Assembly: GCA_009694095.1 (NCBI GenBank)
Contig: SHVV01000003.1
Location: 1-49,332 of the forward strand
DNA: 49,332 bases
Source: Alphaproteobacteria bacterium
GTDB taxonomy: Bacteria; Pseudomonadota; Alphaproteobacteria; SHVV01
Reading direction: 5' to 3'
Every line of letters begins with the position of its first letter. Positions within the stretch are counted from its first letter, which is position 1. Positions 4,607-38,426 of the stretch are shown in pieces. The position numbers and the translations under genes were made by a program. The notes below the pieces were generated by a model. The model did no database searches. It had not been told where the DNA came from and saw only the letters and a list, made by a program, of their open reading frames with translations.

Positions 4607-4676
4607 GTCCCGCTACCGAAAAACTGCCGCCACCGCGAGATCGACTGTGCGGCGGCTTCCGCTTAGTACGACGCGG

Positions 4677-14958: not shown

Positions 14959-17340
14959 ATGGCCGGTAAGTTTAAGGTCGCCATCGTCGGATCGGGACCT
15001 GCTGGAATGAGTGCCGGCGGCCGCGCTGCGGAAACCAACGTCTCGCACATCTTGTTTGAGAAATCCGACCACCTGTCGGACACCATCTATAAATACCAAA
15101 AAGGCAAGTTCGTCATGGCTACGCCAGACGTCTTGCCGCTGCGAAGCCCGATGACGTTCCAAGCCGGGATCCGCGAGGACATCCTGGGAACCTGGGACAA
15201 AGAAGCGGCGAAGCACAAGGTCAACGTCCGCTTCAAGAGCGAAGTCGTCGCGATCAAAGGACAAAAAGGGAACTTCGAACTCCGCGTCCAGGGCGGCGGC
15301 GATATCGTGGCCGAGTACGTAATCCTTTGCATCGGACTGCAGGGTAACCTGCGCAAACTCGAATGCGAGGGCGCCGACCGTCCCTGGGTGCAGTATCAAC
15401 TGGACGATCCCGACGCATACTCGGACGAAACCATCGTCGTGATTGGCGCCGGCGACGCGGCGATCGAAAATGCGGTTGCGCTTGCCAAGCAAAACAAAGT
15501 GATTATCGTCAACCGCCGCGATGAATTCGCCCGCGTCAAACAGGGCAATCTCAATCTGATCGCCGAAGCGATCGATAAGGGAATCATCGAGTGCTACTAC
15601 AACTCGGAACCGGGACACATCGGCGACAACTATCTTCTGCTGAAGACCGCCGAGGGCGAAGCCAAGATCGAGTGTAACCGCATCATCGCCCGACTTGGCG
15701 CCGACCCGCCGCGCCGATTCGTTGAATCGTGCGGCATCAAGTTTCCGAGCAAGGATCGCGCCGCGCTGCCCGAGCTTTCCGGGTCCTACGAGTCGAACGT
15801 TCCCGGCCTTTATATTCTCGGCGCCCTCGGCGGCTATCCGCTGATCAAGCAGGCGATGAACCAGGGCTACGAAGTTATCGAGTTCATCGAGGGGCGACCG
15901 GTCAAGCCAGCCGATGAGCCGCTGCTCGAATCAAAGTTCGCCAACATCAACGTGCCGGTCGAGGAGATGTTGCAGCGCATTCGGCAAAACGTACCGCTTC
16001 TTAGCGGCCTAACGACGCTGCAGTTGCGCGAGTTCATGATCGACTCGAATGTTCATACGCCGCGTCGCGGCGACGTTATTTTCCATCGCAACGACTACAC
16101 CAACAGCTTTTTCTCGATCGTCCAAGGCAATGTTGATATTCAGATCAATCCCACCAACACGGCGGAGGTGGTCGGCCTGGGACAGGGCCAATTCTTCGGC
16201 GAGATGGGCTTGATTTCAGGGCGGCGACGGACGGCAACGACAATTTCGGCGTCTGATGATTGCGTTCTCATCGAAACCCCGCGCCGATCGATGATCAAGC
16301 TGGTCAATTCTGTCGCCGCGGTGAAAAAGGTCCTCGATCAGACCGCGATGGCGCGGCAGATCCAGACCCATCTCGCCCCGGCCGTTCCGACGAGCGAGCT
16401 GCAGGAAGTCGTCGAGAGCGCGAAGATCGAGAGTTACCCGGCGGGTCACGTCATCTTCAACGAAGGAGACCAAGGCGACGCCGTCTACCTGATACGTCGC
16501 GGATCGGTCACCGTATCGCGCTCGATCGCCGGTCGGAATCTCGTGTTATCGTACGTACCCGCGGGCAACTACGTCGGCGAGATGGCTCTGCTCTCGCGCA
16601 AACCACGATCGGCGACGATCAAGACCGCCGTGGCGACCGAAGCGGTCAGGCTCGACGGTTCGGCGTTCAACAAGGTGCTCGACAAATATCCCGACCTGCG
16701 GCGACGTCTCGAGGCAAAATACGACCAACGTTTGGTCGAGAACGTGCGCATGGAGGCCTCGCCCGAGAGTGGCAGCCTCATTGAGTTTTTGGTCGCCCAG
16801 GGTGTCGGCGAAGCCACCGACGTACTTCTGATCGACGAGTCGCTCTGCGTACGCTGCGACAACTGCGAAAAAGCTTGCGCCGAAACCCACGGCGGAACCT
16901 CGCGGCTCGATCGCGAAGCTGGTCCAACCTTTGCCTCGCTTCACGTGCCGACGAGCTGCCGCCACTGCGAGCATCCGCATTGCATGGCTGATTGCCCGGC
17001 CGACGCCATTCACCGGGCCTCGAACGGCGAAGTCTTCATCGACGATAAATGCATCGGCTGCGGCAATTGCGAACGCAATTGTCCGTACCAGGTCATTCAC
17101 ATGGCGGCTAAACCACCCGCCAAACCAGGGTTGCTGCAGTGGTTGTTATTCGGCATGGGGCCGGGCCCCGGCGAAGACCTGGAAGCAAAGAAAATCAAGA
17201 GCAGTTCGCCAAAACTTGCCGTCAAATGCGACATGTGCAAGGACTTGGCGGCGGGTCCAGCGTGCGTTCGGGCTTGTCCGACGGGCGCGGCGATCCGCGT
17301 CAATCCAGAAGATTTTTTTGCGTTGACCATTAGAGGCTGA
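14959..17340 (+). CDS. Fusion: TrxB/YpdA-like FAD-NAD(P)H oxidoreductase + two cNMP-binding domains + 4x[4Fe-4S] ferredoxin domain
   Basis: AIVGSGPAGMSA (FAD), VIGAGDAAIENA..VNRR (pyridine nucleotide), ESNVPGLYILG; cNMP cassettes FFGEMGLISGRRRTAT and YVGEMALLSRKPRSAT; CVRCDNCEKAC, CRHCEHPHCMADCP, CIGCGNCERNCP, CDMC..PACVRACP. Confidence 0.9.
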   Translation: MAGKFKVAIVGSGPAGMSAGGRAAETNVSHILFEKSDHLSDTIYKYQKGKFVMATPDVLPLRSPMTFQAGIREDILGTWDKEAAKHKVNVRFKSEVVAIKGQKGNFELRVQGGGDIVAEYVILCIGLQGNLRKLECEGADRPWVQYQLDDPDAYSDETIVVIGAGDAAIENAVALAKQNKVIIVNRRDEFARVKQGNLNLIAEAIDKGIIECYYNSEPGHIGDNYLLLKTAEGEAKIECNRIIARLGADPPRRFVESCGIKFPSKDRAALPELSGSYESNVPGLYILGALGGYPLIKQAMNQGYEVIEFIEGRPVKPADEPLLESKFANINVPVEEMLQRIRQNVPLLSGLTTLQLREFMIDSNVHTPRRGDVIFHRNDYTNSFFSIVQGNVDIQINPTNTAEVVGLGQGQFFGEMGLISGRRRTATTISASDDCVLIETPRRSMIKLVNSVAAVKKVLDQTAMARQIQTHLAPAVPTSELQEVVESAKIESYPAGHVIFNEGDQGDAVYLIRRGSVTVSRSIAGRNLVLSYVPAGNYVGEMALLSRKPRSATIKTAVATEAVRLDGSAFNKVLDKYPDLRRRLEAKYDQRLVENVRMEASPESGSLIEFLVAQGVGEATDVLLIDESLCVRCDNCEKACAETHGGTSRLDREAGPTFASLHVPTSCRHCEHPHCMADCPADAIHRASNGEVFIDDKCIGCGNCERNCPYQVIHMAAKPPAKPGLLQWLLFGMGPGPGEDLEAKKIKSSSPKLAVKCDMCKDLAAGPACVRACPTGAAIRVNPEDFFALTIRG

Positions 17341-17382
17341 GCGCTTCAGGGCGCCGCCGAGGGGCGGTACGCGGGTGGGAGA

Positions 17383-18210
17383 ATGCACGAGTCTATCTTA
17401 GTTTATCGACATTTCCGTTACCTTAAGTGGGCGGTAACGCTGACCGTGGTCGCAATTCTGGCGTATGTTTTTCACACGCCTGGCGAACCCGCGAACGGCG
17501 GCACGTGGCTTGGGTACACGTTAGGCGGGATCGGCGCTGGCCTCATTTTTTGGCTGGCGTGGTTCGGTATGCGAAAACGCGACTATGCCAAGCCGACCGG
17601 CAAACTCGAAGACTGGCTTTCGGCCCACATCTACCTCGGCTTGTCGCTGATTTTCATCGCCACGCTCCACTCCGGATTCCAGTTTGGCTGGAACGTTCAT
17701 ACGCTGGCATACGTCCTCATGATGCTCGTGATCGCTTCTGGCGCGTTCGGGCTTTACGCCTATATCCGCTACCCGCGGCTGATGACCGACAACCGTCGCG
17801 GTACGACGCTCGATGCGATGATCGTCGAAATGGCCGAGGCCGACCGGGAGATTCGCGAATTGGCCGCGAAAATGAGCGACGAGATACGCGATCTCGTTTT
17901 CGACGCAATCGACAACACCACCATCGGTGGCGGCGTTCGCCGCCAGCTCGAGCCGGGTCGCTCCGGCCGTACCGTCGCGGCAATCGACAAAGTACGCAGT
18001 GCGTTTGCGTCGGGGGCGCGCGACCAGACCGAAACCTCGCGCCGTCTTATCTCGCTGCTAACGCGCAAGAATGAGCTTGTCGTGCGGGCGCGCAACGACG
18101 TCATGTACAAAGCAATGATGGATGTTTGGCTGTACGTCCACGTGCCGCTTTCGTTCGCTTTGCTCGTGGCCTTGGTCGCCCACGTCATCGCCGTTTTTTT
18201 CTACTGGTAG
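17383..18210 (+). CDS. Integral membrane protein, probable di-heme cytochrome b (ferric-reductase-like TM domain)
   Basis: About 5 TM helices; two of them carry His pairs 14 residues apart (WLSAH..ATLH, codons 17626/17668; WLYVH..LVAH, codons 18139/18181). Confidence 0.75.
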   Translation: MHESILVYRHFRYLKWAVTLTVVAILAYVFHTPGEPANGGTWLGYTLGGIGAGLIFWLAWFGMRKRDYAKPTGKLEDWLSAHIYLGLSLIFIATLHSGFQFGWNVHTLAYVLMMLVIASGAFGLYAYIRYPRLMTDNRRGTTLDAMIVEMAEADREIRELAAKMSDEIRDLVFDAIDNTTIGGGVRRQLEPGRSGRTVAAIDKVRSAFASGARDQTETSRRLISLLTRKNELVVRARNDVMYKAMMDVWLYVHVPLSFALLVALVAHVIAVFFYW

Positions 18211-18219
18211 GGTAGACCC

Positions 18220-19905
18220 GTGCGCGTTCGAATTAGTCACCTCACGCGAAAAGCCAAGGGTGTCGCTCACCGCGACGAAGATCGCGAAGAGGATATTCTT
18301 CGTATCGGTCGAGCGACCGATTCGGAAATCTATCTACCCGATGCTCGAGTCAATCTCGTCCACGCGACGCTCAGTCGTCGGCCGGGCGGGTTCTTCATTG
18401 AGGCCGTTGGCGCATCGACGATCCGGCACAATGGCGCATCGCGCTCTTCAGCGCCGCTTAAGATCGGCGACAACGTCATGATCGGACCCTACGATTTGAC
18501 GATCGTTGCCCCCGCCGCCGGGGAAGCGATCGATGTCACGATTGCGGTAGAACTGGTCCGGGCGCAGGCCGACGATCTGGTCGCGCTACGCGCGCGAAGC
18601 CGGACGTCGATCGAAGAAACCGGCCTTCGTAAACGCAGCGTGTCATGGGCTCTATCGATTGTCGTTTTTGTCCTCTTTATCGCCTTGCCCATCGCCGGGT
18701 TCTTCATTCCGGGATTGAACGAATGGTCGCGCAAACTGCCGGTCGCATTCGACCATTCTTGGGATTCCGGGCCGGCGTCGGATTCGCATAAATTCTTTGC
18801 TGGCGACTGCAGCGCTTGCCACCAAAAGGCGTTCGTACAGGTGCGCGACTCGGCTTGTCTGGCATGCCACGCCAAAATCGAAGAGCATGCGCCGCACGAC
18901 GTGAAGGTCGCTGCTTTGTCGGAGGAGCGATGCGCGCACTGCCACAAAGAACACACGCACAATGACGCGATCATCGTCCGAGCGCAGGGGTTCTGCGCCA
19001 ACTGTCACGTCGACCTAAAGAAATTCAACTCTAAATCGACGGTTGCCGATATTGGCGACTTCTTCAGCCAACACGCCGAATTCCGGCCAACCGTCGTCAA
19101 GGCCGTCGAAACGAAAAAATTCGAACGCGTGTCGCTTTCCGACAAAGCTAATCTGATCGAACAATCGAACCTGAAGTTCCCGCACGATAGACATCTGAGC
19201 GAACGCGGCGTGCGCGGACCAAACGGCGTCAGGCAGCTAAAATGCGCCGATTGTCACGAGCCCGACCGCGGCGGCGTCGGTTTGTTGCCAATCGAGATGA
19301 CCAAGCACTGCGCCGATTGCCACCAACTCACCTTCGATCCACGTGCGCCCGAGCGTAAACTGCCGCACGGCGACGTTGCTTCGGCTGTCGGCGTCATTCA
19401 AGACTTCTACGCCGGTCTCGCGCTGAGGGGCCAGATTGAAGAGGAATCGGCGCCGGCTTCGGTTCGCCGACGCGTGGGCCAGCCACTTCGTGAAGAAGAG
19501 AAAAAAGAAGCGCTTGCCTGGGCCGAGACCAAAGCCAAACAACAGATGGAGATAATCCTCGGTACGTCGCTCTGTAAGAGCTGTCATATCGTCGAGCCGC
19601 CGAGCGCGCAGAATCCGTCATGGCGCGTGAAGCCAGTCAAGGTCGTAAACGTCTGGATGCCAAAGGCCATATTCGTCCATGCCAAGCATTCGACCGTCGA
19701 CTGCACGCACTGTCACGACGCACCTAAATCGACGCAGTCATCCGACGTCTTGATGCCTTCGATCAATACTTGCCGCGAATGCCACGGCGGCGAAAATCAG
19801 GCGAGCCGACTTCCATCGCCGTGCGCGATGTGCCACGTCTTCCACCGGCAAGATCTCGGGCCAATGCGCCCAGACTTCAAGAAGACGGCGGCAACGGGTA
19901 ATTAG
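18220..19905 (+). CDS. FHA-domain, single-TM, decaheme c-type cytochrome
   Basis: N-terminal ILRIGRATDSEIYLPDARVNLVHA (FHA-like); TM SWALSIVVFVLFIALPIAGFF; 10 CxxCH (CSACH, CLACH, CAHCH, CANCH, CADCH x2, CKSCH, CTHCH, CRECH, CAMCH). Confidence 0.9.
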   Translation: MRVRISHLTRKAKGVAHRDEDREEDILRIGRATDSEIYLPDARVNLVHATLSRRPGGFFIEAVGASTIRHNGASRSSAPLKIGDNVMIGPYDLTIVAPAAGEAIDVTIAVELVRAQADDLVALRARSRTSIEETGLRKRSVSWALSIVVFVLFIALPIAGFFIPGLNEWSRKLPVAFDHSWDSGPASDSHKFFAGDCSACHQKAFVQVRDSACLACHAKIEEHAPHDVKVAALSEERCAHCHKEHTHNDAIIVRAQGFCANCHVDLKKFNSKSTVADIGDFFSQHAEFRPTVVKAVETKKFERVSLSDKANLIEQSNLKFPHDRHLSERGVRGPNGVRQLKCADCHEPDRGGVGLLPIEMTKHCADCHQLTFDPRAPERKLPHGDVASAVGVIQDFYAGLALRGQIEEESAPASVRRRVGQPLREEEKKEALAWAETKAKQQMEIILGTSLCKSCHIVEPPSAQNPSWRVKPVKVVNVWMPKAIFVHAKHSTVDCTHCHDAPKSTQSSDVLMPSINTCRECHGGENQASRLPSPCAMCHVFHRQDLGPMRPDFKKTAATGN

Positions 19906-19960
19906 TGGCTCCATGCGTAGTTTTAAATATCGTGAACTGAAGAATGACGGAGGCTGCCCG

Positions 19961-20392
19961 TTGTTGAAACGAGTGATGCTATGGGGCATTGGGGGCGTGC
20001 TGGCGCTTGCCATGACGACGACGTTTGAATCGGCACAGGCGGCGTCTTTGTCGACGTCCGGAGCGGTCTTGACCGATCTGCGGGCCGACATCGACAACGC
20101 ACAGATTTCGCAAACCATCGATCTCAATGGCGACGTTGCGATCGCGACCTACGTCATGGCGCACATGCCCGATGGCAAGTCATTGCAACGCAACAATCTC
20201 GGCTACTGGTTGCCGTGGAACGGCCAGATCGACACCCTCCTCGACAATAAGTTCGTCGCCGGAGGTTCGACGCTCACATTCAAGATCATCGACCAAAGTA
20301 TTCGCGATCGAATGTTTCCGATCACCTTCGTCGTCGCCTATCGCACGGCCGCGGCGTTCAAGTTCGGCGTGCTTCAAGTGTCGCCCCAATAA
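19961..20392 (+). CDS. Small exported hypothetical protein
   Basis: GGAGG RBS at 19949-19953 before TTG19961; signal peptide ending ..ESAQA; beta-rich body; tightly packed in the operon. Confidence 0.7.
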   Translation: MLKRVMLWGIGGVLALAMTTTFESAQAASLSTSGAVLTDLRADIDNAQISQTIDLNGDVAIATYVMAHMPDGKSLQRNNLGYWLPWNGQIDTLLDNKFVAGGSTLTFKIIDQSIRDRMFPITFVVAYRTAAAFKFGVLQVSPQ

Positions 20393-20398
20393 ACGAGC

Positions 20399-22279
20399 AT
20401 GCTGATACGACATTGGATTCAAGCGTTTGTTTCGACCTTCATCGCCGCCGTGGCAACCGGTCCGGTGGCAGCAGAGAGTGCGCTGACGGCGGCCGAAGTC
20501 GGCCAGATCATCGCGCAAGCGGTCAACGAAGCCCAGGGGCGCGGCGCATTGGCGACGATCGCTGCCGTCGATCGCGTCGGCAATGTCTTGGGCGTATTCC
20601 AGATGACCGGCGCCGCCGCCAACGCGACGATCAGTTCAGGCCGCAACGTCGTCGGCGGGCTCGAAGCCGCCGCCGTTCCTTCGACGCTCGCCGCCATCGC
20701 CAAGGCGATCACCGGCGCCTACATTTCTTCCCGCGGCAATGCGTTCACGACACGCACCGCGAGTCAGATCGTCCAGCAAAACTTCAACGTCGGCGAAACT
20801 TTTCAACCCGGCGGACCGCTGTTCGGCGTGCAATTCAGTCAGCTGCCGTGCTCGGACCTCGCCGTGCGTTTTTTCGATGGTGGCGCGGGCGGCATCGTTA
20901 ACGCGACGCTCGGGCCGAAACGCTCGCCGCTTGGCCTCTCGGCCGACCCCGGCGGGCTCCCGCTCTATAAAGCCGGCGACCTCGTCGGCGGAATCGGGGT
21001 CATCAGCGACAGCCTTTATTCGCTCGACCCAGTCATTACCAATTTCGATACCGACGCCGACGAATTGATCGCGGTCGGTGGCCAATCCGGATTCGCGCCA
21101 CCCAACGATATCAAGGCGAATTTCATTTCGGCCGGCGGACGGACGCTCCGCTACATCGATCGCGGGCCCGAAGCATTGGCGCGAAACCCGGCGACTGCGA
21201 CTGCATTCGGCGGGATCAACGGCGTCGTCGGCGTGCTCGCTAACGTCACCGGCTATTTCACTGCCGGCGGCGGCATTCTCGCTGGGCGGCAATACGGTAC
21301 CGCCGCGTCAGGCTATCGCCTTGAAGACGGGACGACTTACGGAACATTCCGCAACGGCAACCGCGCGATGATCTTGGTAGATGGCGCCGACACCAACCGA
21401 TTCCCGCCGGCCGTTGGCAGCGATGGACTGCTGTCGGCGGCCGAGGTGACTCGAATCATGATCGGAGCGCTGGCGGTGGCTTACGCTGGCCGGGCGCAAA
21501 TCCGGCGGCCGCTTTCGGACAACATTCACGTTACGATCTCGATCGTCGACACCAACGGCAAGATTCTGGCGTTGGCGCGGACCTTCGATGGTCCAGTGTT
21601 CGGCACCGACGTATCGCTGCAAAAAGCCCGCTCGGCGATGTTCTTCAGCAATCTCAACGCGGCTGCTGACTTTACTGCCGGGGGCCACGGCGCGCGCGTT
21701 GCGCAGGTTCGAACTTTCTTCGGAATCCCGACGTTATTGGCTGACGGTATCGCCTGGGGAAATCGCTCGATCGGCAATATCGCTCGCCCGTACTACCCCG
21801 ATGGCATCAACGGCAATCCGAATGGTCCGCTCAGCAATCCGGAATCCGCTTGGAGCCCGTTTTCGGTCGGGCTCCAGCTTGAGTTGGTCTCCGCCAACAT
21901 CCTGACCCACCTCGGATTCGTCGCCGGCCTGAACGCCGACACGCCGTCGCGTTGCACCGCGCTGCCGTTGCAGGTCGCGACCGGCGCGCCGAGGCTTGCC
22001 AACGGCCTGCAGATTTTCGCCGGCGGCGTTCCGATTTTCCGGGGCAATACCCAAGTCGGCGGCATCGGCATCTCCGGCGATGGCATCGACCAAGACGACA
22101 TGGTGGCATTCCTCGGCTTGCACAACGCTGGAGTCGCGCTCGCGACCGGCGTCAGTAACGCGCCCAAGGGGATCCGCGCCGATAATATCAGCGCATTTGG
22201 CGCTCGGCTGCGCTACGTCAATTGCCCGTTCGCGCCCTTCATCGACACATCGGCTCAGAACGTATGCGCCGGCAAATGA
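20399..22279 (+). CDS. Exported tandem GlcG/HbpS-type heme-binding protein
   Basis: Signal peptide; two repeats: TIAAVDRVGNVL..AIAKAITGA..GGLPLYKAGDLVGGIGV and TISIVDTNGKIL..SLQKARSA..GGVPIFRGNTQVGGIGISGDGIDQDD. Confidence 0.85.
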   Translation: MLIRHWIQAFVSTFIAAVATGPVAAESALTAAEVGQIIAQAVNEAQGRGALATIAAVDRVGNVLGVFQMTGAAANATISSGRNVVGGLEAAAVPSTLAAIAKAITGAYISSRGNAFTTRTASQIVQQNFNVGETFQPGGPLFGVQFSQLPCSDLAVRFFDGGAGGIVNATLGPKRSPLGLSADPGGLPLYKAGDLVGGIGVISDSLYSLDPVITNFDTDADELIAVGGQSGFAPPNDIKANFISAGGRTLRYIDRGPEALARNPATATAFGGINGVVGVLANVTGYFTAGGGILAGRQYGTAASGYRLEDGTTYGTFRNGNRAMILVDGADTNRFPPAVGSDGLLSAAEVTRIMIGALAVAYAGRAQIRRPLSDNIHVTISIVDTNGKILALARTFDGPVFGTDVSLQKARSAMFFSNLNAAADFTAGGHGARVAQVRTFFGIPTLLADGIAWGNRSIGNIARPYYPDGINGNPNGPLSNPESAWSPFSVGLQLELVSANILTHLGFVAGLNADTPSRCTALPLQVATGAPRLANGLQIFAGGVPIFRGNTQVGGIGISGDGIDQDDMVAFLGLHNAGVALATGVSNAPKGIRADNISAFGARLRYVNCPFAPFIDTSAQNVCAGK

Positions 22280-24087
22280 CCTTATGGTACGTTTTCTATG
22301 TTGCGCTCGCGGTAGCGATCACCCTGGCAACATCGCCATCGTTTGCCGGCAAAGAAAAAATCGAAGCCAGCGGTGAAACCGGCGTCACGCTGGCGCAGGC
22401 AACCGACGAAGATCGCCGCCGACCCGGGCGTCCGGTCCCGGACCGGCAACAAATCCCCGCAGTCGATTCGTCCCGGGTGCCGCCGCCGCAGCCGACGCTG
22501 CCGCGCGAAACCATCCCGGTTCCCGATCGTTGGCGCATCGTCGAGTCGATCGGCGTCAACTCGCGTTGGTGGGACCCGTACAATCAGAACATGCTCAAGG
22601 GCGACCGGCCGGTGTTCGATGACTGGTTCGTCAACTTGAGCGTGATCCTCGACGCGATTTACGAACCACGCCGGTTTCCCAACCCGACCGGCACGCAGGC
22701 GACGACCAACGCCAACGCGGTCGATCAGTTCGGCAAGAACAAGCAGACGGTTCTCGCCGAGAACCTGATCACCACGCTGTCGTTTATCAAAGGCAACACC
22801 GCCTACCAACCGCCGGACTATGAAATCCGCATCGGGCCGGTCTTCAACCACAATAAGGTGGTGGCGGAGGAAGTGGGGCTGCTGTACGCCGACCCGGCCA
22901 AGGGCCGCACGCGCAGCGATCAGTTCGTCGGCTGGCAGGAGCTGTTCCTCGACTACCATATTCGCAACGTCTCCGATCGGTTCGATTTCGACTCGATCCG
23001 TCTCGGTATCCAGCCCTTTCAACTCGACTTCCGTGGATTCCTCTTTCAGGACTTGCAGCTCGGCGCGCGTCTGTTCGGCAACCGCGACAACAATTTCTGG
23101 CAGTACAACGTCGGTTGGGTGCGCCGCCTCGAAAAAGACACTAATAGCGGTTTGAACGACATCGGCGCCAAGCTGCGCGACGATGACGTCTACTTCGTCA
23201 ATCTTTTCCGCCAGGACTGGCCGGTGCTCGGATTCACGAGCCAGGCCGTGGTCGCGCACAACCGCAACAACGAGGACGATCGCCGCTATTTCAACGAGAA
23301 CGAGTTCCAGGAGCGTCCGGCGCCGATCGGCGATCAACGGCCGCGCAAGTATCACGTCACCTATCTCGGGCTGAACGGCGACGGACACTTCGGCCGGCTC
23401 AACCTGACCGGCTCGCTCTATTACGCATTCGGTAAAGACGAGCTTAATCAATTCGCCGGCGACGGATCGAGCGCCGATATCCGCGCCTATTTCGCCGCTA
23501 CGGAGGCGTCTTGGGACTTCAGCTGGATTCGAGTTCGTGCCCAAGCGGCGTATGCGTCCGGCGATAACGATCCAACTGACGGCAAGGAGGGCGGCTTCGC
23601 GGCGATCTTCGAAAACCCGCAGTTCGCCGGCTCAGATACGAGTTACTTCATTCGGCAGTCGATCCCCTTCATCGGTGGCGGCGGCACGACGATCACTTCG
23701 CGCAACGGGATGCTCACGGAGCTGCGCACCTCGAAGGAGCACGGCCAGTCGAACTTCATCAATCCGGGCTTGATCCTTGCCGGCTTCGGCACCGACATGG
23801 ACCTCTCGCCGCAGCTTCGCGTCTCGACCAATTTCAACCACTTGTCGTTCGCCACCACCGATTCGCTCGAGTTCCTGCGCAATCAGAACGCGATCGGCGA
23901 CGAAATCGGTTACGACCTCTCGGTCGCTTTCACCTATCGCCCGCATTTCACGCAGAACGTCGTGTTCCGGCTATCCGGCGCCTGGTTGATCCCGGGCGAC
24001 GGGTTTCGCGACATCTACCGGGCGCGAACCGGAACCGGCGACGACTTCTTCTACTCCGTGCTCGGCAACGTGACTCTCACCTATTAG
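22276..24087 (+). CDS. Outer-membrane beta-barrel (porin-like) protein
   Basis: ATGA overlap with the upstream stop; signal peptide ..SFA; many amphipathic aromatic strands; C-terminal beta-signal YSVLGNVTLTY; no Cys. Confidence 0.78.
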   Translation: MTLWYVFYVALAVAITLATSPSFAGKEKIEASGETGVTLAQATDEDRRRPGRPVPDRQQIPAVDSSRVPPPQPTLPRETIPVPDRWRIVESIGVNSRWWDPYNQNMLKGDRPVFDDWFVNLSVILDAIYEPRRFPNPTGTQATTNANAVDQFGKNKQTVLAENLITTLSFIKGNTAYQPPDYEIRIGPVFNHNKVVAEEVGLLYADPAKGRTRSDQFVGWQELFLDYHIRNVSDRFDFDSIRLGIQPFQLDFRGFLFQDLQLGARLFGNRDNNFWQYNVGWVRRLEKDTNSGLNDIGAKLRDDDVYFVNLFRQDWPVLGFTSQAVVAHNRNNEDDRRYFNENEFQERPAPIGDQRPRKYHVTYLGLNGDGHFGRLNLTGSLYYAFGKDELNQFAGDGSSADIRAYFAATEASWDFSWIRVRAQAAYASGDNDPTDGKEGGFAAIFENPQFAGSDTSYFIRQSIPFIGGGGTTITSRNGMLTELRTSKEHGQSNFINPGLILAGFGTDMDLSPQLRVSTNFNHLSFATTDSLEFLRNQNAIGDEIGYDLSVAFTYRPHFTQNVVFRLSGAWLIPGDGFRDIYRARTGTGDDFFYSVLGNVTLTY

Positions 24088-24097
24088 GGTCGCCTCA

Positions 24098-27000
24098 ATG
24101 CGCTTGGTCTTTGCCGCGATCTTTTTCTTCGCGCTCGGCGTTGCCGGCGGCGGTATGGCGTCCGAAGGCGAGAAGCCGCTCGACCTTCAATACGTGACAG
24201 CGCCGCCAGCGCCGGTATCGCAAACACAAGCTCAGGCCGACGCCAAAAGTGTGGGCTGCATGAGCTGTCACACCCAGACCGATCAGAAGACGATGCATGC
24301 CAACCCGGCGATCGTCTTGGGGTGCGTCGACTGCCACGGTGGCGACGCTGCGGTGCGCAAGCCGGAAGGTTCGAAATACGACCGCACCTACGCGAAGGAG
24401 AAGAAAGCGCTCCACCACGACGACGAACACGGAAAGGGCGGCGAGGAAGAGCGCCATGGCGCAATCGACCCGTTGTTATTCGGCGACGCCGCCTACGTCG
24501 CGGCGATGCAAAAAGCCCACGTCATGCCGCGCATGCCCAATACCTGGGGCTATCCGCGCAGCCGCAACCCCGAGCGCGCCTACACGCTCTTCAACAAGGA
24601 GGCGCCGGAGTACATCCGCTTCGTCAATCCGTCCGACTACCGCATTGCGCGAGAGGCCTGTGGCGCCTGCCACTTGCCGATCATCCAAGCCGCCGAGCGC
24701 CATCTGATGTCGACCGGCGCCATGCTGTTCGGTGGTGGCGCCTACAACAACGGCATACTTCCGTTCAAAAACTATCTCTTGGGCGAGGCTTACACGCGAG
24801 ACGGCCAGCCGGCCGCGGTCGAAAGCCCTGGCTTCACGCCGGAGATGAAGAAGTGGGGCGTCATCGAAAAGTTGGTGCCGTTGCCGACGTTCCAGACCGT
24901 GCCGCCGGGCGACGTTTTCCGCGTGTTTGAGCGCGGCGGGCGCAACATCGTCACCCAGTTCCCCGAGATCGGGTTACCCAACTCGCTCGGCCAGATTCAA
25001 CGTCTCGAAGAACCGGGCCGTCCCGATTTACGCCAGTCGATGCGCGGGCCTGGAACCGGGCTTCGCATTGCGGTGCCGGTCCTCAACATTCACCGAACGC
25101 GCCTCAACGACCCGTTCATGTGGTTCATGGGCACCAACGATCAGCCCGGCGACTACCGCACGTCGGGTTGCGGCGGTTGCCACATCGTTTACGCCAACGA
25201 CCGCGACCCGCGCCACTCGGGGCCTTATTCGATTTACGGACACGAGGGCAAGACCCAGACTATCGACCCGACGATCCCGAAGGACGAAGAAGGCCACCCG
25301 ATCAAGCACGAATTCTCGCGCCAAATTCCGACCGCGCAGTGCATGAACTGTCACATGCACCAACCCAACGTCTTCGTGAACAGCTTCATGGGCTACACGA
25401 TGTGGGACTACGAATCGGATGCACCGAACATGTGGCCGGAGAAACAGCAATATCCGACCGCGGCCGAGATCCGAAAAGTCAACGAACGCAATCCCGAGGA
25501 AGCCGCGATCCGCGGCAAGTGGGCGGACGTCGAGTTCACCAAGAACGTGTGGACCGACGTCAACCCGAAGAACAAGGATACGCAATTCGCCGACTATCAT
25601 GGCCACGGCTGGAATTTCCGCGCCATCTATAAACGCGATCGCAAAGGCAATTTGCTCGACGCCGATGGCAAGATCGTTTCCAACGACGATCCGCAGAAGT
25701 TCAAGAAAGCCGTGCACATGTCGTCGATCCATGTCGACAAAGGCATGCACTGCATCGACTGTCATTTTTCCCAGGACGCTCACGGCAACGGCTACATCCA
25801 GACCGAGGTCGCCAACGCGGTCGAAATCGATTGCGCCGACTGCCACGGCACGGTCGACAAGTTGCCGTCCCTCATTACGAGCGGGCCGGCGGCGCTCCGC
25901 GGCGGTTACGACCTCACGCTGATCCGCCTGGGCGACGGCCGCCGCCGTTTCGAATGGCGTGGCGACACGCTTGTCCAGCGCTCGGCGCTGTGGCCCAATC
26001 TCGAGTGGGAGATGAGTCTCGTCAAACACAGCGTCGAGCCCGATCACAAGGACTACAACCCCAAGGCGGCGCGGGCGAAGCTGATGTCCAAGGATACAGC
26101 GTCGCTCAAGTGGGGCCCCGGGGTTGCCAAGGACGATCGCGCCCATAAAGACGACGAAATGCTGTGTTTCACATGCCACCTCTCGTGGACGACGAGCTGC
26201 GCTGGTTGCCACCTGCCGATTCAGGCCAACTGGAAGGCGCCTTCGCATAAGTACGAAGGCCAAGTCTCGCGCAACTACGCGACTTACAACCCGCAAGTCG
26301 CGCGCGACGATGTCTTCCACTTGGGTCGCCACCAGACCACAAAAGGCAACAAGATCGCTCCCGTCCGGTCTTCATCGGGGCTGGTGTTGTCGTCGCAGAA
26401 CATTAACCGCGAGCGCATCTACATCCAGCAGCAGCCGGTCGCCGCCTCGGGCCACTCGGCGCAGGCTTTCGCTCCACACTTCCCCCACACTGAGCGCAAG
26501 ACCGAAACCAAGACCTGCAACGATTGCCACCTGTCGGAGAGCGACGACAACAACGCGATCATGGCCAACACGCTGATGTTCGGGACCAATTTCCCGACCT
26601 TCGTCGGCGCCAATGCCTGGGTCGCCGCGGATGGCGGCATCGAGGGCGTGCAAGTGACCGAGTACGACGAGCCGCAGGCCGTCATCGGCAGTTACCTGCA
26701 CCGATATGCCTACCCCGACTGGTATGCCGACCACCAAAAGCACGGCAAGGAACTGCAGATCGCCCACAACCACCCATCGGCGCGCGCCGCCTGCCTCCAG
26801 CTTCGCGGCGAATATCTCTACGTCGCCGAGGGCCCGAATGGGTTCCGCGCCTACGACGTCGCCTCGATCGCCAACAAAGGATTTTCACAGCGCATCGTCA
26901 CGGCGCCGTTCGGCCCGTGGGGTCACGACACCCACATCGCCACAAAGAACGCGACCTGCGTGGCCTTGCCGTCGAACGCCCAAGCGATTCATCCGGCGCG

Positions 27001-27970
27001 CAACCAGGGCGACCTGATGCGCAAGGACAATCAGGAGCAGCCGTTCCACCCAATCTACGACTACGCGTTCGTCACCGACTCGGAAGAAGGTCTGATTGCG
27101 GTCGACGTCAACACTCTTTCGGACGGCGAGCCGCGCAATAATTTTTTCACCCGCGCGCTGACGTGGAACGAGAACGGAGTCCTGAACGGCGCCCGCCACA
27201 TCACGATCGCTGGCTACTATTTCTACATCGTCGCCGATTCGGGCATCGTCGTTCTCAACATGGACGATCCGATGAAGCCCAAGGTCGAAAGCATCATACC
27301 GCTGAAAAACGGCCATTCGACGGCGCTCCAGTTCCGCTACTTGTTCGCCACCGACGCCGAGGGCTTCAAGGTGTTTGACGCCACCAACATGGCCAAACCG
27401 GTTGCGGTGCCCGGCGCCGTCATCCCGCTCAGAAATGCCAACCGCATCCTGCCGGTCCGAACCTACGCTTATGTCGCCGCCGGCAACGAGGGTCTTGTCA
27501 TCATCGACATCGAGAAACCGCGTAAACCTTCGGTCTACATGAAGTACACCGCCGACGGCGCGATCAACGATGCGCGCGACGTGACAGTAGGCACGACTAA
27601 CGCGACGCTCTTCGCTTACGTCGCCGACGGCAAGAACGGTCTCAAGGTGATTCAACTGACCGCGCCTGACACGCAGCCCAACTTCTACGGGTTTAGCCCT
27701 GAGCCCAAACCGAACCTGATCGCGTGGTACAAGACGACTTGGCCGGCGCTCGGTCTCTCCAAAGGGCTCGAACGTGACCGCGCCGTCGATGAAACCGGCG
27801 GTCAGATCGCGGTCTTCGGTCGGCTAGGGTCGCGTCCGTTCTCGAAGAAAGAAATGGAGAAATTCTATCTCGATGCCCAAGGGCGGCCGTGGTTCACCCA
27901 CGAGGAAATTCGCCAACGTGACTTCGTGTCGGTCAAGCCCGGCGAGCGCAAGGCGGCGAGAGCGAACTGA
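24098..27970 (+). CDS. Exported decaheme c-type cytochrome with C-terminal LVIVD-repeat beta-propeller
   Basis: Signal peptide; 10 CxxCH (CMSCH, CVDCH, CGACH, CGGCH, CMNCH, CIDCH, CADCH, CFTCH, CAGCH, CNDCH); about 7 repeats such as YLYVAEGPNGFRAYDV, YAFVTDSEEGLIAVDV, YAYVAAGNEGLVIIDI, FAYVADGKNGLKVIQL. Confidence 0.9.
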   Translation: MRLVFAAIFFFALGVAGGGMASEGEKPLDLQYVTAPPAPVSQTQAQADAKSVGCMSCHTQTDQKTMHANPAIVLGCVDCHGGDAAVRKPEGSKYDRTYAKEKKALHHDDEHGKGGEEERHGAIDPLLFGDAAYVAAMQKAHVMPRMPNTWGYPRSRNPERAYTLFNKEAPEYIRFVNPSDYRIAREACGACHLPIIQAAERHLMSTGAMLFGGGAYNNGILPFKNYLLGEAYTRDGQPAAVESPGFTPEMKKWGVIEKLVPLPTFQTVPPGDVFRVFERGGRNIVTQFPEIGLPNSLGQIQRLEEPGRPDLRQSMRGPGTGLRIAVPVLNIHRTRLNDPFMWFMGTNDQPGDYRTSGCGGCHIVYANDRDPRHSGPYSIYGHEGKTQTIDPTIPKDEEGHPIKHEFSRQIPTAQCMNCHMHQPNVFVNSFMGYTMWDYESDAPNMWPEKQQYPTAAEIRKVNERNPEEAAIRGKWADVEFTKNVWTDVNPKNKDTQFADYHGHGWNFRAIYKRDRKGNLLDADGKIVSNDDPQKFKKAVHMSSIHVDKGMHCIDCHFSQDAHGNGYIQTEVANAVEIDCADCHGTVDKLPSLITSGPAALRGGYDLTLIRLGDGRRRFEWRGDTLVQRSALWPNLEWEMSLVKHSVEPDHKDYNPKAARAKLMSKDTASLKWGPGVAKDDRAHKDDEMLCFTCHLSWTTSCAGCHLPIQANWKAPSHKYEGQVSRNYATYNPQVARDDVFHLGRHQTTKGNKIAPVRSSSGLVLSSQNINRERIYIQQQPVAASGHSAQAFAPHFPHTERKTETKTCNDCHLSESDDNNAIMANTLMFGTNFPTFVGANAWVAADGGIEGVQVTEYDEPQAVIGSYLHRYAYPDWYADHQKHGKELQIAHNHPSARAACLQLRGEYLYVAEGPNGFRAYDVASIANKGFSQRIVTAPFGPWGHDTHIATKNATCVALPSNAQAIHPARNQGDLMRKDNQEQPFHPIYDYAFVTDSEEGLIAVDVNTLSDGEPRNNFFTRALTWNENGVLNGARHITIAGYYFYIVADSGIVVLNMDDPMKPKVESIIPLKNGHSTALQFRYLFATDAEGFKVFDATNMAKPVAVPGAVIPLRNANRILPVRTYAYVAAGNEGLVIIDIEKPRKPSVYMKYTADGAINDARDVTVGTTNATLFAYVADGKNGLKVIQLTAPDTQPNFYGFSPEPKPNLIAWYKTTWPALGLSKGLERDRAVDETGGQIAVFGRLGSRPFSKKEMEKFYLDAQGRPWFTHEEIRQRDFVSVKPGERKAARAN

Positions 27971-28083
27971 CAGAGGCCGTCTTCAATCAGCTCTCGCCAT
28001 CGGGCTTGGTCTCGACCCCGTAGCTCGACGAACACTTGTGACACCCAGGTTAGGCGCTTGGAACTCTAAGCGAGAAAACCTCG

Positions 28084-28115
28084 AAAAAAAGAGCGCACCG
28101 GAAGGTGCGCTCTTT
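28084..28115 (-). terminator. Rho-independent terminator between convergent cytochrome genes
   Basis: AAAGAGCGCACC-GGAA-GGTGCGCTCTTT hairpin; the A7 run at 28084-28090 gives a U-tract on the minus strand. Confidence 0.88.
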
Positions 28116-28138
28116 CGCTGAACCGGACGAAACAGACT

Positions 28139-29482
28139 TTAAGACCGCGGGATCGCCTCGTTGAGCTTCCGCATCGCCGCGACGAACGCTTCCGGCCGAT
28201 AAGCTTCGTCCTTCGCCGTCGCGTCGTACGCCTCGTTCAAGGTATTGATCATCTTTTTGTGCTGAGCGTCGTTGACGAGGCCCGACTGTTTCATCGCATT
28301 GATGATCGCCGAAAGCGCCATCGTCGCTTGCTCCGCCGTCGCATAGTCGACGAATTCACCCTTCATGCCCTCTTGGGTGACGCCGCTCAGAAGCGCTTCC
28401 ATGTCTTTGCGCTCGAAGGTGTGCTTGGCGAACCGGTCGACCAGCTGCGCGACAATCGCCAGCATCTCCTTGGCGGCATCGGCCGTTTGCTGCGGGCTCT
28501 GGGTCGAAGCCTGATGCAACTTAACCGTAGAGTCGCGGAGCCGTTGTCCGGACGGCTCATCGACCTGCGTTGCAATGATGCGCAGCATGATCATGTTCGC
28601 GTCGTTGAGCCGAATGATGCCCGGCCCGAGCTTGGCGCTTTCACGCCGTTGCCAGCGTACGTTGCTCATCGGGTGATGGCACGCGTGGCAGTCGAACAGC
28701 ACGAGCTCGGGGAAAATACCGTCGTGGCTTCGGGTCGGCGACGTCAAGGCCTCAAGGAGCCCGCGGAGTTGAATTGCTTGACCGATCGCCCAGGTCTGAA
28801 CGCCGTTCAGGACCGGCTTGCGCTTGCGATAGTCGGCATCGACGACGAAGTGCGCCGGCTGGATGGCGGTAAACGTGTCGAGCTCAAAGCTCATGCGTGG
28901 ATGGCCGGCACCCATAATGCGGTGGGTGACGAACTTGGTTTCGTTGCCGAAGTGGCACGACAGGCAAAGCTCGGCTCGCTTAACCGGGTCGGTGGTTGGA
29001 TACATGCCGTTCTTCAGATTGTCGGCGTGACCGGCCGTGCCCGAGATGTGAATGCCGAGCCAGCGTACCGCACCGCCATGACACGCCTCGCACCCAACGC
29101 CATCCGATACCTGGTAGGTGCGGCCGCGCGCTTCGGGGGCGGGACTGTCGGCGTGACAATCGAGGCAAATCTTCGCCGTATGGGCGTTGGGAAGCCCCAA
29201 ATTGGCGGCAATCCGTTTTGAGCGCTCGTTATGCAGCACCTCGAACGCTTTGGCGTGCTTATCCTGACGCGTCCAGGTGACGTATTCGTTTTGCTGAACG
29301 TTGGCGTCCTTCCATGGCGTGACCGCGCCGTGGCACGTGGAGCCGGCGCAACTGGCGACGCCGAGGTGTACGTCTTTGCTCTGGGACGGCAATTGCTGGC
29401 CAACAGCAGCCCACGCGAGAACGCTCGCGAAAAGGCCGACGACAAGGAATGAGCGAAGGGTCATCCCCAAGCGCCGCGTCAT
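28139..29482 (-). CDS. Periplasmic pentaheme c-type cytochrome (c554/c552-like N-terminal domain + helical C-terminus)
   Basis: RBS GGGAGG before ATG29482; signal peptide; CAGSTCH (Cx4CH), CLDCH, GVGCEACHG, CLSCH, CHACH; W...KHAKAF motif. Confidence 0.87.
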   Translation of the reverse strand: MTRRLGMTLRSFLVVGLFASVLAWAAVGQQLPSQSKDVHLGVASCAGSTCHGAVTPWKDANVQQNEYVTWTRQDKHAKAFEVLHNERSKRIAANLGLPNAHTAKICLDCHADSPAPEARGRTYQVSDGVGCEACHGGAVRWLGIHISGTAGHADNLKNGMYPTTDPVKRAELCLSCHFGNETKFVTHRIMGAGHPRMSFELDTFTAIQPAHFVVDADYRKRKPVLNGVQTWAIGQAIQLRGLLEALTSPTRSHDGIFPELVLFDCHACHHPMSNVRWQRRESAKLGPGIIRLNDANMIMLRIIATQVDEPSGQRLRDSTVKLHQASTQSPQQTADAAKEMLAIVAQLVDRFAKHTFERKDMEALLSGVTQEGMKGEFVDYATAEQATMALSAIINAMKQSGLVNDAQHKKMINTLNEAYDATAKDEAYRPEAFVAAMRKLNEAIPRS

Positions 29483-29571
29483 GATTCCTCCCTGAAACTT
29501 GTCTCTTCCGAACGCTCTCACTGCTTCAATACTATGGCGCGCTCCCGGGCAATGATAAAGCCTTAAGTCGG

Positions 29572-30327
29572 ATGCCGGAACTACCCTTGCAATCGATTCT
29601 CATTATCGCCGCGGCGCCGTTTTTCGGCAGTTTTATCGCGACTGTTGCCCGCCGTTTGCCGGCCGGATCGAGCATCGTCTTTGGCCGATCGCGATGCCCC
29701 TACTGCCAAGCGGTGCTATCACCGCGGGACCTCGTTCCGGTCCTCAGTTGGGCGCTCGCGAAGGGCCGTTGCCGTCTGTGCGGACATGCGCTCGGCGGCT
29801 ACTATCCGGCGGTCGAATTGATTGCGCTCGCGATCGCCGCGGTTGCGGTTACCTTTTTCACGGGGCCCTGGTCTTGGGTCGCGGCATCGTTTGGTTGGGC
29901 GCTGCTCGCGCTCGCGGCGGCCGATGCCGACTCTTTCACGCTGCCCGACTCGATCACGCTCCCGCTAATACCAACCGGCCTCGCCGCCGCGTGGGGGCTC
30001 GATCCCGATCGACTTCTTATGCACGCACTGGCCGCCGTGGGTGGGTTCGTTTGTTTCGCCGCGATTACGGTCGCTTACCGCGCGATTCGCCACCGCGATG
30101 GCCTCGGTTGGGGTGACGCCAAGCTCATGGCCGCCGCCGGCGCTTGGGTAGGGCCCTGGCCGCTGCCCTCGATCGTTCTCGCCGCTGCACTCGCGGCGCT
30201 CTCGGTCGTTGCGGTCAGCCGCCTTCGCGGCCGTAGCATCGAGGCGACGGAACAGGTACCCCTTGGCCTCTACCTCGCTCCGGCGATATGGGCCGCTTGG
30301 GTGGCCGAGCGTACCGGCGCGCTCTAG
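29572..30327 (+). CDS. gspO: Prepilin peptidase (A24 family)
   Basis: FFGSFI..RSRCPYC..DLVPVLSW..GRCRLC, catalytic AADADSFTLPD and GLGWGDAKL. Confidence 0.92.
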   Translation: MPELPLQSILIIAAAPFFGSFIATVARRLPAGSSIVFGRSRCPYCQAVLSPRDLVPVLSWALAKGRCRLCGHALGGYYPAVELIALAIAAVAVTFFTGPWSWVAASFGWALLALAAADADSFTLPDSITLPLIPTGLAAAWGLDPDRLLMHALAAVGGFVCFAAITVAYRAIRHRDGLGWGDAKLMAAAGAWVGPWPLPSIVLAAALAALSVVAVSRLRGRSIEATEQVPLGLYLAPAIWAAWVAERTGAL

Positions 30328-30406
30328 CAGTGTTCGCTCGAATGGCGCGGCCGCGCAGGTCCGGTTAAGATACCGCGGTAACTCACGATTTCAGGTGCTG
30401 ACCGCG

Positions 30407-33328: not shown

Positions 33329-33764
33329 CGCCCATCCCGATCGCTCGCGCTGGCGCGTCGCGGGCTACACTTTGATCGAACTCCTGGTCGTGCTGGTAAT
33401 TCTGGGCTTGCTGGTCGGGGTCGTCGGGCCGCAGATTTTCCCTTACCTCGGACGCGGTAAGTCGGAAACCGCCGCGCTGCAAATCAAGAGCCTCGAAGCT
33501 GCGATCGACCTGTTCCGCCTCGACGTTCTGCGGCTTCCAACCCAGCAAGAGGGCCTTGAGGTGCTGGTCAAGAAACCCGAGGGCGTCAGTCGTTGGACCG
33601 GCCCCTACCTCAAGGGCGGAAGAATCCCACTCGATCCGTGGGACCGCGCCTACGTTTACCGCATCCCAAGTCTGAGCGGCGGCGACTACGATCTGTTTTC
33701 GCTCGGCGCCGATGGTCGCGAAGGCGGCGAAGGTGAAAACCGCGACATCACGAACCGCCCTTGA
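33312..33764 (+). CDS. gspG: Major pseudopilin
   Basis: GYTLIELLVVLVILGLL; PTQQEGLEVLV..WTGPYL..PLDPWDRAYVY..SLGADGREGGEGENRDI. Confidence 0.95.
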   Translation: MRSRYSAHPDRSRWRVAGYTLIELLVVLVILGLLVGVVGPQIFPYLGRGKSETAALQIKSLEAAIDLFRLDVLRLPTQQEGLEVLVKKPEGVSRWTGPYLKGGRIPLDPWDRAYVYRIPSLSGGDYDLFSLGADGREGGEGENRDITNRP

Positions 33765-33777
33765 TCGACCCCGCTAC

Positions 33778-36127: not shown

Positions 36128-36174
36128 CGCCCTGATTCGTTGCCTGAGAGCAATACCAAGTGTAGCTTTCCAGT

Positions 36175-37883: not shown

Positions 37884-37884
37884 C

Positions 37885-38370: not shown

Positions 38371-38426
38371 GACTCCGGCACGATTTGGCGCTAGATTTGT
38401 TTGCCTCATCAAGGGATTGGCTTTTC

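Follow-up and report, generated by a model that had tools for sequence, protein, structure and literature searches.

Can a bacterium pass electrons from its cytoplasmic NAD(P)H to the outer membrane along a dedicated chain of hemes? The question is raised by a cluster of eight genes, here called g1 to g8, in a stretch of 49,332 nucleotides (contig SHVV01000003.1 of assembly GCA_009694095.1, an alphaproteobacterium of GTDB lineage SHVV01), which was analyzed as a whole and is referred to as the window. The host genome is 63% complete and 1.88 Mb in size. An initial annotation of the window had read the cluster as a wire from NAD(P)H to the cell surface. The inner-membrane half of that model is well supported, with a topology that fits a path from NAD(P)H through FAD, Fe-S clusters and heme b to heme c, whereas the surface half fared less well, the outer-membrane barrel being AlgE-like and not MtrB-like.

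The reading that we favor, with a probability of about 0.55, is an outward, NAD(P)H-fed chain gated by cyclic nucleoside monophosphates (cNMP), running from g1 through g2, g3 and g8 to g7 and ending at an outer-membrane module of g5, g6 and g7. This chain probably bypasses quinone. The components are as follows (open reading frame (ORF) coordinates as in the initial annotation; TM, transmembrane):

14959-29521, g1-g7 on the plus strand, g8 convergent: the whole cluster
14959..17340, plus strand: g1, 793 aa, cytoplasmic; FAD/NAD(P)H domain, two cNMP domains and four predicted [4Fe-4S] clusters (Pfam, NCBIfam)
17383..18210, plus strand: g2, 275 aa, integral membrane protein with five predicted TM segments (topology from sequence)
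18220..19905, plus strand: g3, 561 aa, FHA-TM-decaheme c protein (Pfam, CXXCH count)
19913..20392, plus strand: g4, 159 aa, small exported protein (no family matched)
20399..22279, plus strand: g5, 626 aa, exported, two HbpS/GlcG-like (PF03928) domains (Pfam)
22276..24087, plus strand: g6, 603 aa, AlgE-like outer-membrane beta-barrel (AF2, Foldseek, Pfam)
24098..27970, plus strand: g7, 1290 aa, exported, decaheme plus 7-bladed LVIVD propeller (Pfam, AF2)
28139..29482, minus strand: g8, 447 aa from the ATG at 29482 (the ORF reaches 29521), exported pentaheme

The signal peptides of g4, g5, g6, g7 and g8 were called by eye from the sequence.

The domain content, ligand conservation, topology and co-conservation of these genes, and their relationship to a sister system, were established by the analysis; the sequence of carriers beyond g3, the outward sense of the flow, its gating and the acceptor are inferred. 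The FAD of g1 would oxidize NAD(P)H, and electrons would run along four [4Fe-4S] clusters to an Fe-S domain docked at the cytoplasmic face of g2, whose b hemes would span the inner membrane (inner heme H82/H253, outer heme H96/H267). They would next reach g3, anchored in the membrane with its ten bis-His c hemes, and proceed to the periplasmic pentaheme g8 and the decaheme-propeller g7, the latter acting with the translationally coupled g5 and g6 at the outer membrane. The cNMP domains, lying between the flavin and the Fe-S chain, would gate the flow, and the cytoplasmic FHA domain of g3 could add a phosphothreonine-dependent or docking control. Candidate acceptors are Fe(III)/Mn(IV), O2 or some other oxidant located at the outer membrane or outside it.

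A proposed path from NAD(P)H to the periplasm

The seven co-oriented genes are tightly packed, with successive gaps of 42, 9, 7, 6, -4 and 10 nt from g1 to g7; g5 and g6 overlap in an ATGA at 22276-22279, and 168 nt separate the end of g7 from the convergent g8. In this respect the layout first described was reproduced, as was its count of 25 heme-c motifs, made up of 24 CXXCH (10 in g3, 10 in g7 and four in g8) plus a conserved CX4CH in g8. Residue-shuffled versions of g3, g7 and g8 averaged 0.03, 0.015 and 0.01 CXXCH (maximum 2), and 24 of the 26 CXXCH motifs found in six frames of the 49-kb window lie in frame within the three genes. Pfam and NCBIfam likewise returned the domains listed initially, that of g2 only at a sub-threshold level. 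A promoter and terminator scan was uninformative (promoter-like sites, 2 vs 3.9 expected; terminator-like sites, 22 vs 16.5 expected).

In Pfam, g1 matched Pyr_redox_3/2, cNMP_binding (in two stretches) and Fer4 families, and its sequence holds neither a signal peptide nor a TM segment. The flavin domain (residues 1-320) is TrxR/YpdA-like and begins with a Rossmann motif; it is followed by cNMP-binding domains at about 340-600 and by a four-cluster ferredoxin domain at about 620-793. Because 16 conserved Cys, each kept in 53/54 sequences, form four ferredoxin-type motifs, g1 is predicted to carry four [4Fe-4S] clusters. The PF00027 match (124 bits, two stretches) identifies the cNMP domains as CRP/PKA-type. 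The phosphate-binding cassette of such domains consists of Gly-Glu plus Arg-Ser/Thr-Ala, and it is conserved in both domains of g1 (Gly 1.0; Glu 0.98 and 0.93; Arg 1.0).

Four His residues of g2, H82 and H96 on TM3 and H253 and H267 on TM5, are each present in 59/60 sequences, the members of each pair being 14 residues apart; the protein also has a cytoplasmic loop of about 115 aa. Under a positive-inside reading, H82 and H253 would lie toward the cytoplasm and H96 and H267 toward the periplasm. Such a geometry is what one would expect for two stacked b hemes, making g2 a candidate di-heme b protein.

An FHA domain (28.3 bits) and cytochrome c7/c3 families were detected by Pfam in g3, where the cytoplasmic FHA domain precedes the sole TM helix (about 141-165) and the periplasmic decaheme domain comes after it. 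Pfam picked up the FHA domain in 20/41 orthologues. The 10 CXXCH motifs all score as invariant (the full set is present in 58/60 sequences), and because they are matched by ten other invariant His, the hemes of g3 all look bis-His, which would suit a wire rather than a catalyst. The absence of an export signal in g1, the matching depths of the His pairs in g2 and the position of the FHA domain ahead of the TM helix in g3 support a path from inside to outside.

The next carrier of the favored chain, g8, has one CX4CH and four CXXCH motifs, followed by a C-terminal helical region. All five motifs, the CX4CH among them, are kept in 53/53 sequences. Pfam reported C554/C7 matches, and a comparison with PDB sequences returned cytochrome c554 (E 4e-4).

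The initial annotation had also anticipated interfaces between adjacent products. When the Fe-S domain of g1 was submitted to complex prediction with g2 plus g3 (residues 1-200), the score was 0.40, the best of three controls being 0.00, so that one such interface is weakly supported; run-to-run contact agreement was at least 62% and partner pLDDT at least 61. The mark applied is reached by 58/80 solved complexes and 2/110 mismatches, and scores up to 0.60 come from 7/80 solved complexes plus both passing mismatches, a calibration that is only roughly valid here because the alignments were our own.

It could also be that the chain branches from the quinone pool, g2 being a quinol dehydrogenase or quinone reductase of CymA- or NarI-like type, with g1 in a regulatory or auxiliary-donor role. 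The di-heme b subunits FdnI, NarI and CybB carry quinone sites; the sole family hint for g2 is Ni_hydr_CYTB (21.6 bits vs a cut-off of 30.1); and H106 in its periplasmic loop, to which we could assign no role, is invariant (60/60). We nevertheless judge this arrangement improbable. This system and the sister system described below have each retained g1 or a divided counterpart that works with a different NAD(P)H flavoprotein, which makes NAD(P)H hard to dismiss as the input, and the four-cluster ferredoxin domain already supplies a donor on the cytoplasmic side.

The outer module and the location of g7

The HbpS-like match of g5 amounts to 58 bits in two stretches, and the PDB sequences most similar to it are GlcG/EfgA/HbpS-type chains, which inform at the domain level only. 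The protein has four conserved Cys. Where present, g5 always stands immediately upstream of g6.

That g6 is an outer-membrane barrel, as initially annotated, was borne out by a confident AF2 model (pLDDT 81, pTM 0.81), in which about 18 strands were counted from DSSP. The protein is extended at its N terminus by a Pro-rich segment, and a conserved loop of 71 residues (428-498 in the 603-aa form) looks inward in the model. Foldseek placed AlgE first (E 1.2e-18, target TM 0.60-0.71) and OprD/Occ channels next, and the Pfam family Alginate_exp matched at 25.2 bits, exactly its cut-off, in keeping with an 18-strand AlgE-like fold. Identity to AlgE (PDB 3RBH and others) is only 12-15%, however, and g6 differs from it in the Pro-rich extension, in the 71-residue loop and in a context of cytochromes instead of polysaccharide synthesis. 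MtrB was not among the 50 best Foldseek matches listed, which comprised AlgE, Occ/OprD and other 16-18-strand porins, and no MtrB/PioB match was obtained in NCBIfam. Nor does g6 contain a CXXCH motif, as a Cyc2-type fusion of heme and barrel would. Since g6 is not MtrB-like and has no heme motif, the classical porin-cytochrome picture does not apply.

The periplasmic part of g3 contains an RRRPG-like motif (residues 416-420; RRRPG in 21/60 sequences), as does the Pro-rich extension of g6 (residues 65-69 of the 621-aa ORF; 30/79 sequences). It is partly conserved, and for the remaining five proteins it turned up in 0-2 sequences each. Perhaps g3 and g6 have a docking motif in common, or the resemblance is due to chance.

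Pfam matches of g7 are LVIVD and c3_2, with a heme domain at about 40-860 and a propeller at about 880-1240. Ten CXXCH are present in 83/85 sequences, and 15 more His are conserved at 0.98 or above, together with two extra Cys. An AF2 model of residues 41-1240 (pLDDT 73, pTM 0.79) ends in a 7-bladed propeller, and the Foldseek neighbors were propellers only (YVTN/LVIVD-type, BtuG, AztD and the d1 domain of cd1 nitrite reductase). For the heme domain, the Foldseek search of the PDB gave no structural neighbor, the ESM Atlas (residues 40-860) returned only generic multiheme clusters, and the comparison of g7 with PDB sequences yielded just two marginal c7-like matches. Because no Cys precedes residue 54, g7 has no lipobox.

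The clues on the location of g7 conflict. Assuming export to be outward, exposure at the surface is a placement to which we give slightly less than an even chance. One clue is a type II secretion system (T2SS) that adjoins the cluster and is possibly linked to it:

29572..40592, plus strand: complete T2SS; prepilin peptidase (GspO), GspE, F, G, H, minor pseudopilins, K, L-like, M and secretin (GspD) (Pfam)

A T2SS adjoins the cluster also in G001, G003, G035, L024, L027 and L069 (G and L numbers denote genomes and loci of our samples), and lies within 16 kb of it in G104. After the T2SS of the window, on the minus strand, come genes for a 399-aa PPC-domain protein (40614-41813) and for a protein of 649 aa (41867-43816) that weakly matches a GspD-N0-like domain. 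Both accompany the T2SS in G001, G003 and G035, and their products may be T2SS substrates or accessory parts.

A rather unlikely alternative is that g7 stays in the periplasm as a terminal reductase, fed by the inner module through g3 and g8 and holding its substrate in the propeller. In such an arrangement, g6 would conduct no electrons but would let a substrate or product through, in the manner of AlgE and OprD, and g5 would serve as a periplasmic accessory. A barrel of about 18 strands, AlgE/OprD-like and free of heme motifs, would fit that role, as would a g7 without lipobox whose conserved His exceed by five the need of ten bis-His hemes. The conservation of g7 is also enzyme-like: its best 80 relatives, by record title mostly from Alpha-, Beta- and Gammaproteobacteria, are 58-69% identical in the best segment. 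Finally, one g7 homologue (P0086, "OmpA family protein [Solimonas sp.]") ends in an OmpA-like peptidoglycan-binding domain (residues 1274-1353). On the other hand, we identified no catalytic-site signature in g7, and a T2SS stands beside the cluster in several families. The Pfam entry, as quoted in an excerpt of a preprint (10.1101/2022.05.06.490989), presents LVIVD repeats as a typical feature of proteins at the cell surface. As for the OmpA-like fusion, it is the only one among the 120 g7 homologues listed, no ORF in 84 loci matched the domain, and being a single protein from a metagenome-assembled genome (MAG) it may be either genuine or a merged gene call.

Several findings weigh against the outward chain ending at the outer membrane. 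The OmpA-like fusion hints at a periplasmic g7. The T2SS neighborhood was not seen at most loci, and GspG was unmatched in 2/5 cluster-bearing genomes rated 100% complete, though each has one secretin gene. The g6 barrel appears, in the model, too narrow for an MtrA-like insert; with a narrow barrel and no heme motif in it, electrons are left without an evident route through the outer membrane. The chain does not explain g5, in which no His or Met that could ligate heme is conserved, and one locus, that of a Methylobacter MAG (L085), reads g8 g1 g2 g3 g6 g7 without it. At the inner membrane, no heme-b family reached its Pfam threshold for g2, so that heme binding is deduced from the His spacing alone, and g2 may contain a quinone site; docking of the g1 Fe-S domain on g2/g3 is, as a prediction, no more than weakly supported. 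Lastly, every component is known from genes and sequence alone.

Distribution and a sister system

Relatives of g7 were found in 7/41 related genomes, and the order g1-g7 is retained in G001, G003, G035 and G010. One further genome, G034, was discarded as a carrier, having a weak g7 match only and no g3 match. In a scan with one genome per species, at least 598 species genomes contained g7 relatives, and a protein search gave at least 8000 clusters. Cultured carriers include Limnobacter alexandrii, Parahaliea maris, Sphingobium subterraneum and Zavarzinia. Except for the "OmpA family protein" above, the names given among the 120 homologues listed all read "hypothetical protein".

The components proved to be co-conserved, as the initial annotation required: seven genes, i.e., all except g4 and here termed core genes, occur together in Alpha-, Beta- and Gammaproteobacteria in shuffled orders. 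Among 36 loci with both 10-kb flanks, 24 have all seven, 10 lack one and 2 lack g1-g3. Genes absent from a locus were recovered elsewhere in the genome for g1 (4/4) and g8 (5/5), several of them just past the flank; this check covered nine missing-gene cases and left out L026, L047 and L059. There are at least five distinct complete orders of the seven core genes, and g5-g6-g7 is contiguous at every locus except L085, where the g6 ORF is longer (736 aa) and begins where g3 stops. Full-length g3 was found in 14/251 genomes of the class and 13/401 of the phylum (even samples), and in G152 a divergent g3 marks the same system in a different gene order.

In contrast to the core genes, g4 is present in just 12/84 loci and gave no match in Pfam or NCBIfam; on this distribution it is classed as a lineage-restricted accessory. 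In a same-family genome (L013; G003:C5:811000-830000) the cluster looks damaged, by decay or by assembly indel errors: g1 is split into three pieces, carries an insertion of about 1 kb and lacks residues 638-734, and g3, g5 and g7 each match in two frames. Upstream of the cluster in the window, two adjoining TPR-repeat ORFs occupy 11404-12576; the second also matches a fragment of Carbam_trans_C, as a broken or miscalled gene might. An AFG1-like ATPase and a dienelactone hydrolase separate the TPR ORFs from g1, a synteny restricted to the same genus.

By following up weak matches to g3 in the phylum sample, we reached loci that encode homologues of g2, g3, g8 and the cNMP and Fe-S part of g1. 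In one of them, L157, tblastn indicated distant homology to g1 (residues 403-785; 28%, E 2e-39), g2 (27%, E 6e-12), g3 (23%, E 3e-7) and g8 (23%, E 5e-10). Its genes are:

Item 1: 643-aa pentaheme
Item 2: 574-aa protein, no family
Item 3: 424-aa flavoprotein, NAD_binding_1 + Fer2
Item 4: 327-aa tetraheme
Item 5: 603-aa protein, three cNMP domains + Fer4
Item 6: 274-aa TM protein
Item 7: 852-aa decaheme
Item 8, 3556-5784, minus strand, directly after the decaheme gene: 743-aa protein, response-regulator receiver + class III nucleotidyl cyclase + metallophosphoesterase

Items 1-7 resemble the ptdABCDEFG operon of marine UBA11136 Alphaproteobacteria, a match made to the text description alone in the accessible part of a preprint, which defined the operon from sequence and transcripts and left its function unknown (10.1101/2023.11.21.568154). 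As described there, ptd also comprises a cNMP Fe-S protein, a TM "ferric-reductase-like" protein, a decaheme, a 4-CXXCH cytochrome, an NAD(P)H flavoprotein and a barrel. Counterparts of PtdE, PtdF, PtdG and PtdD are present in our cluster as g1, g2, g3 and g8, by distant homology to L157, whose domains were confirmed by Pfam. The PtdA pentaheme/beta-sandwich, the PtdB porin and the separate PtdC of that partial description have no equivalent here, and the cluster was not assigned to ptd.

The L157 flavoprotein, in the PtdC role by that same description, is separate, FNR-type and 2Fe-2S, whereas a TrxR-like Pyr_redox_3/2 domain is fused into g1. Its outer cytochrome, the 643-aa pentaheme, is not significantly similar to g7 (best E 0.021 over 85 residues), and its 574-aa barrel candidate is not detectably related to g6 (hhalign probability 0.5%). 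L157 has no HbpS-like g5 and no propeller, and FHA was not detected in it. Since g7 and g6 are without detectable similarity to the L157 pentaheme and its neighbor, the core common to both systems would consist of a cNMP/Fe-S protein, a membrane protein with His pairs, a decaheme anchored in the membrane and a cytochrome of g8 type, so that only the inner module appears to be shared. We regard the exchange of the flavoprotein for an unrelated one as the strongest comparative argument that the system exists to take in electrons from NAD(P)H.

Since a cyclase gene adjoins L157, the comparison also supports cNMP control. The cAMP/cGMP control initially proposed thus gains from two sides, namely conserved cNMP pockets and a cyclase beside a ptd-type sister locus; the window's own genome gave eight class III cyclase-domain matches. 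A second form of control is suggested by Gammaproteobacteria (as assigned by record title), in which a PP2C phosphatase follows g8 in 13 loci and a double-FHA protein in 10. At L054 (14976-21677), both come after g8, followed by an autotransporter-domain gene and, 3 kb further, a Hanks-type Ser/Thr kinase. Because PP2C, double-FHA and kinase genes lie nearby, the FHA domain of g3 may be tied to Ser/Thr phosphorylation. At betaproteobacterial loci, again assigned by record title, ccm genes for cytochrome maturation adjoin the cluster (CycH at 15, CcmA at 10, CcmC at 9 and CcmB at 6 loci).

We take the flow to be outward because both flavoprotein types normally oxidize NAD(P)H, and because inward flow to NAD(P)+ would oppose both the redox and the membrane potential. 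The reverse route, by which Fe(II), reduced sulfur or a cathode would deliver electrons through g7, g8, g3, g2 and g1 to NAD(P)+, seems very improbable. In its favor, the excerpted text of a preprint suggests electron uptake for the "NHC" locus of the Fe(II) oxidizer Ferrigenium straubiae, which encodes an FHA-nonaheme, a 5-TM unannotated protein and a cytoplasmic [4Fe-4S] protein (10.64898/2026.01.22.701106). By that description, the trio is the same as ours, including a single-TM multiheme with cytoplasmic FHA, but it has nine hemes, stands beside nirK and is without the g5-g6-g7 outer module. In principle, multiheme chains are reversible. The reduction potential of NAD(P)+ is about -320 mV, however, which makes its reduction from such donors uphill; inward flow would also have to overcome a membrane potential that is negative inside, and the cluster includes no subunit for energy coupling. 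Going by record titles, most named carriers belong to genera of aerobic heterotrophs.

Known systems and biological meaning

The initial annotation had left membership in the Mtr, Pcc or Cyc2 systems to be excluded, and no family model matched: NCBIfam and Pfam matches for Mtr, Pcc/Ext, Cyc2, Hmc and Nrf were all far under cut-off. The MtrA/DmsE model (TIGR03508; cut-off 192.2 bits) scored 17.4 on g3 and 20.7 on g8. On g7, Mtrc-MtrF_II-IV_dom reached 16.3 bits (cut-off 30), and g7 does not qualify as an MtrC/OmcA lipoprotein. Of the Geobacter Pcc/Ext families, ExtM gave 63.9 bits on g7 541-591 (cut-off 800) and the GSU2203 family 17.6 bits on g8 (cut-off 325).

The cluster is like MtrCAB, PioAB and MtoAB (Shewanella, Rhodopseudomonas, Sideroxydans) in co-encoding decahemes with an outer-membrane barrel. 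In Shewanella, MtrC/OmcA are exported by a T2SS, and a T2SS adjoins the cluster in this lineage. The barrel of the solved MtrAB structure has 26 strands, whereas g6 is AlgE-like with about 18, and g7 has a propeller and no lipobox; the input also differs, being an NAD(P)H/Fe-S/heme-b module here and quinol via CymA there. The proposed inner step follows the logic of NOX/FRE enzymes and E. coli MsrQ-Fre, in which electrons go from NAD(P)H to a flavin, two bis-His b hemes and a trans-membrane acceptor without quinone. In our cluster, however, an Fe-S chain and cNMP domains are interposed, g2 has no Pfam Ferric_reduct match, and the acceptor is a 25-heme c chain instead of O2, Fe(III) or MsrP.

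In layout, the Tmc/Hmc complexes of sulfate reducers are similar, with a periplasmic multiheme c, a membrane b cytochrome and a cytoplasmic Fe-S protein. Their subunit families are different (HmcA/HmcB NCBIfam matches were weak here, far under cut-off), their electron flow is inward, and they are not known to contain a flavin/NAD(P)H or cNMP domain. The Tenderiales uet cluster, to the extent of its partial description, is a different system. By analogy, then, the cluster may be described as a porin-cytochrome-like conduit joined to a NOX/MsrQ-Fre-like inner step in a Tmc/Hmc-like layout, and would be a member of none of these.

The literature that we searched held no characterization of the cluster, and the main text of the MHCscan survey (PMC11475568), the part consulted, does not describe it. 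The initial impression that such neighborhoods are known only as hypothetical annotations has to be revised, however, in that one preprint names the ptd operon and another notes the FHA-multiheme trio, both leaving the function unknown.

Known outer-membrane electron conduits use the quinol pool and belong mostly to metal-respiring or iron-oxidizing specialists. The present cluster, if our reading is true, would draw on pyridine nucleotides and pass their electrons along 27 hemes with no quinone involved, controlled by cyclic nucleotides and probably by phosphothreonine as well, and its inner module (cNMP/Fe-S protein, di-heme b and FHA-decaheme) would be a portable unit, found also in ptd and in the Ferrigenium trio. 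Should g7 turn out to be periplasmic, the cluster would instead define a large, hitherto unrecognized family of multiheme-propeller reductases.

Tentatively, and at below even odds, we suggest that the cluster is a bacterial trans-envelope counterpart of eukaryotic NADPH oxidase and ferric reductase: a second-messenger-gated valve through which aerobic Proteobacteria would use their cytoplasmic NAD(P)H directly to reduce an acceptor on or outside the outer membrane, with neither the quinone pool nor energy conservation taking part. It could then underlie the acquisition of Fe or Mn by reduction, the production of superoxide outside the cell or redox overflow in oxic habitats. Carriers number in the hundreds and are mostly aerobic members of the Alpha-, Beta- and Gammaproteobacteria that live in soil, lakes, the sea and sludge. 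The cluster bears on how aerobes reduce extracellular metals or produce extracellular reactive oxygen, on the control of electron flow by second messengers at the protein level and on the evolution of modular inner-membrane electron exporters.

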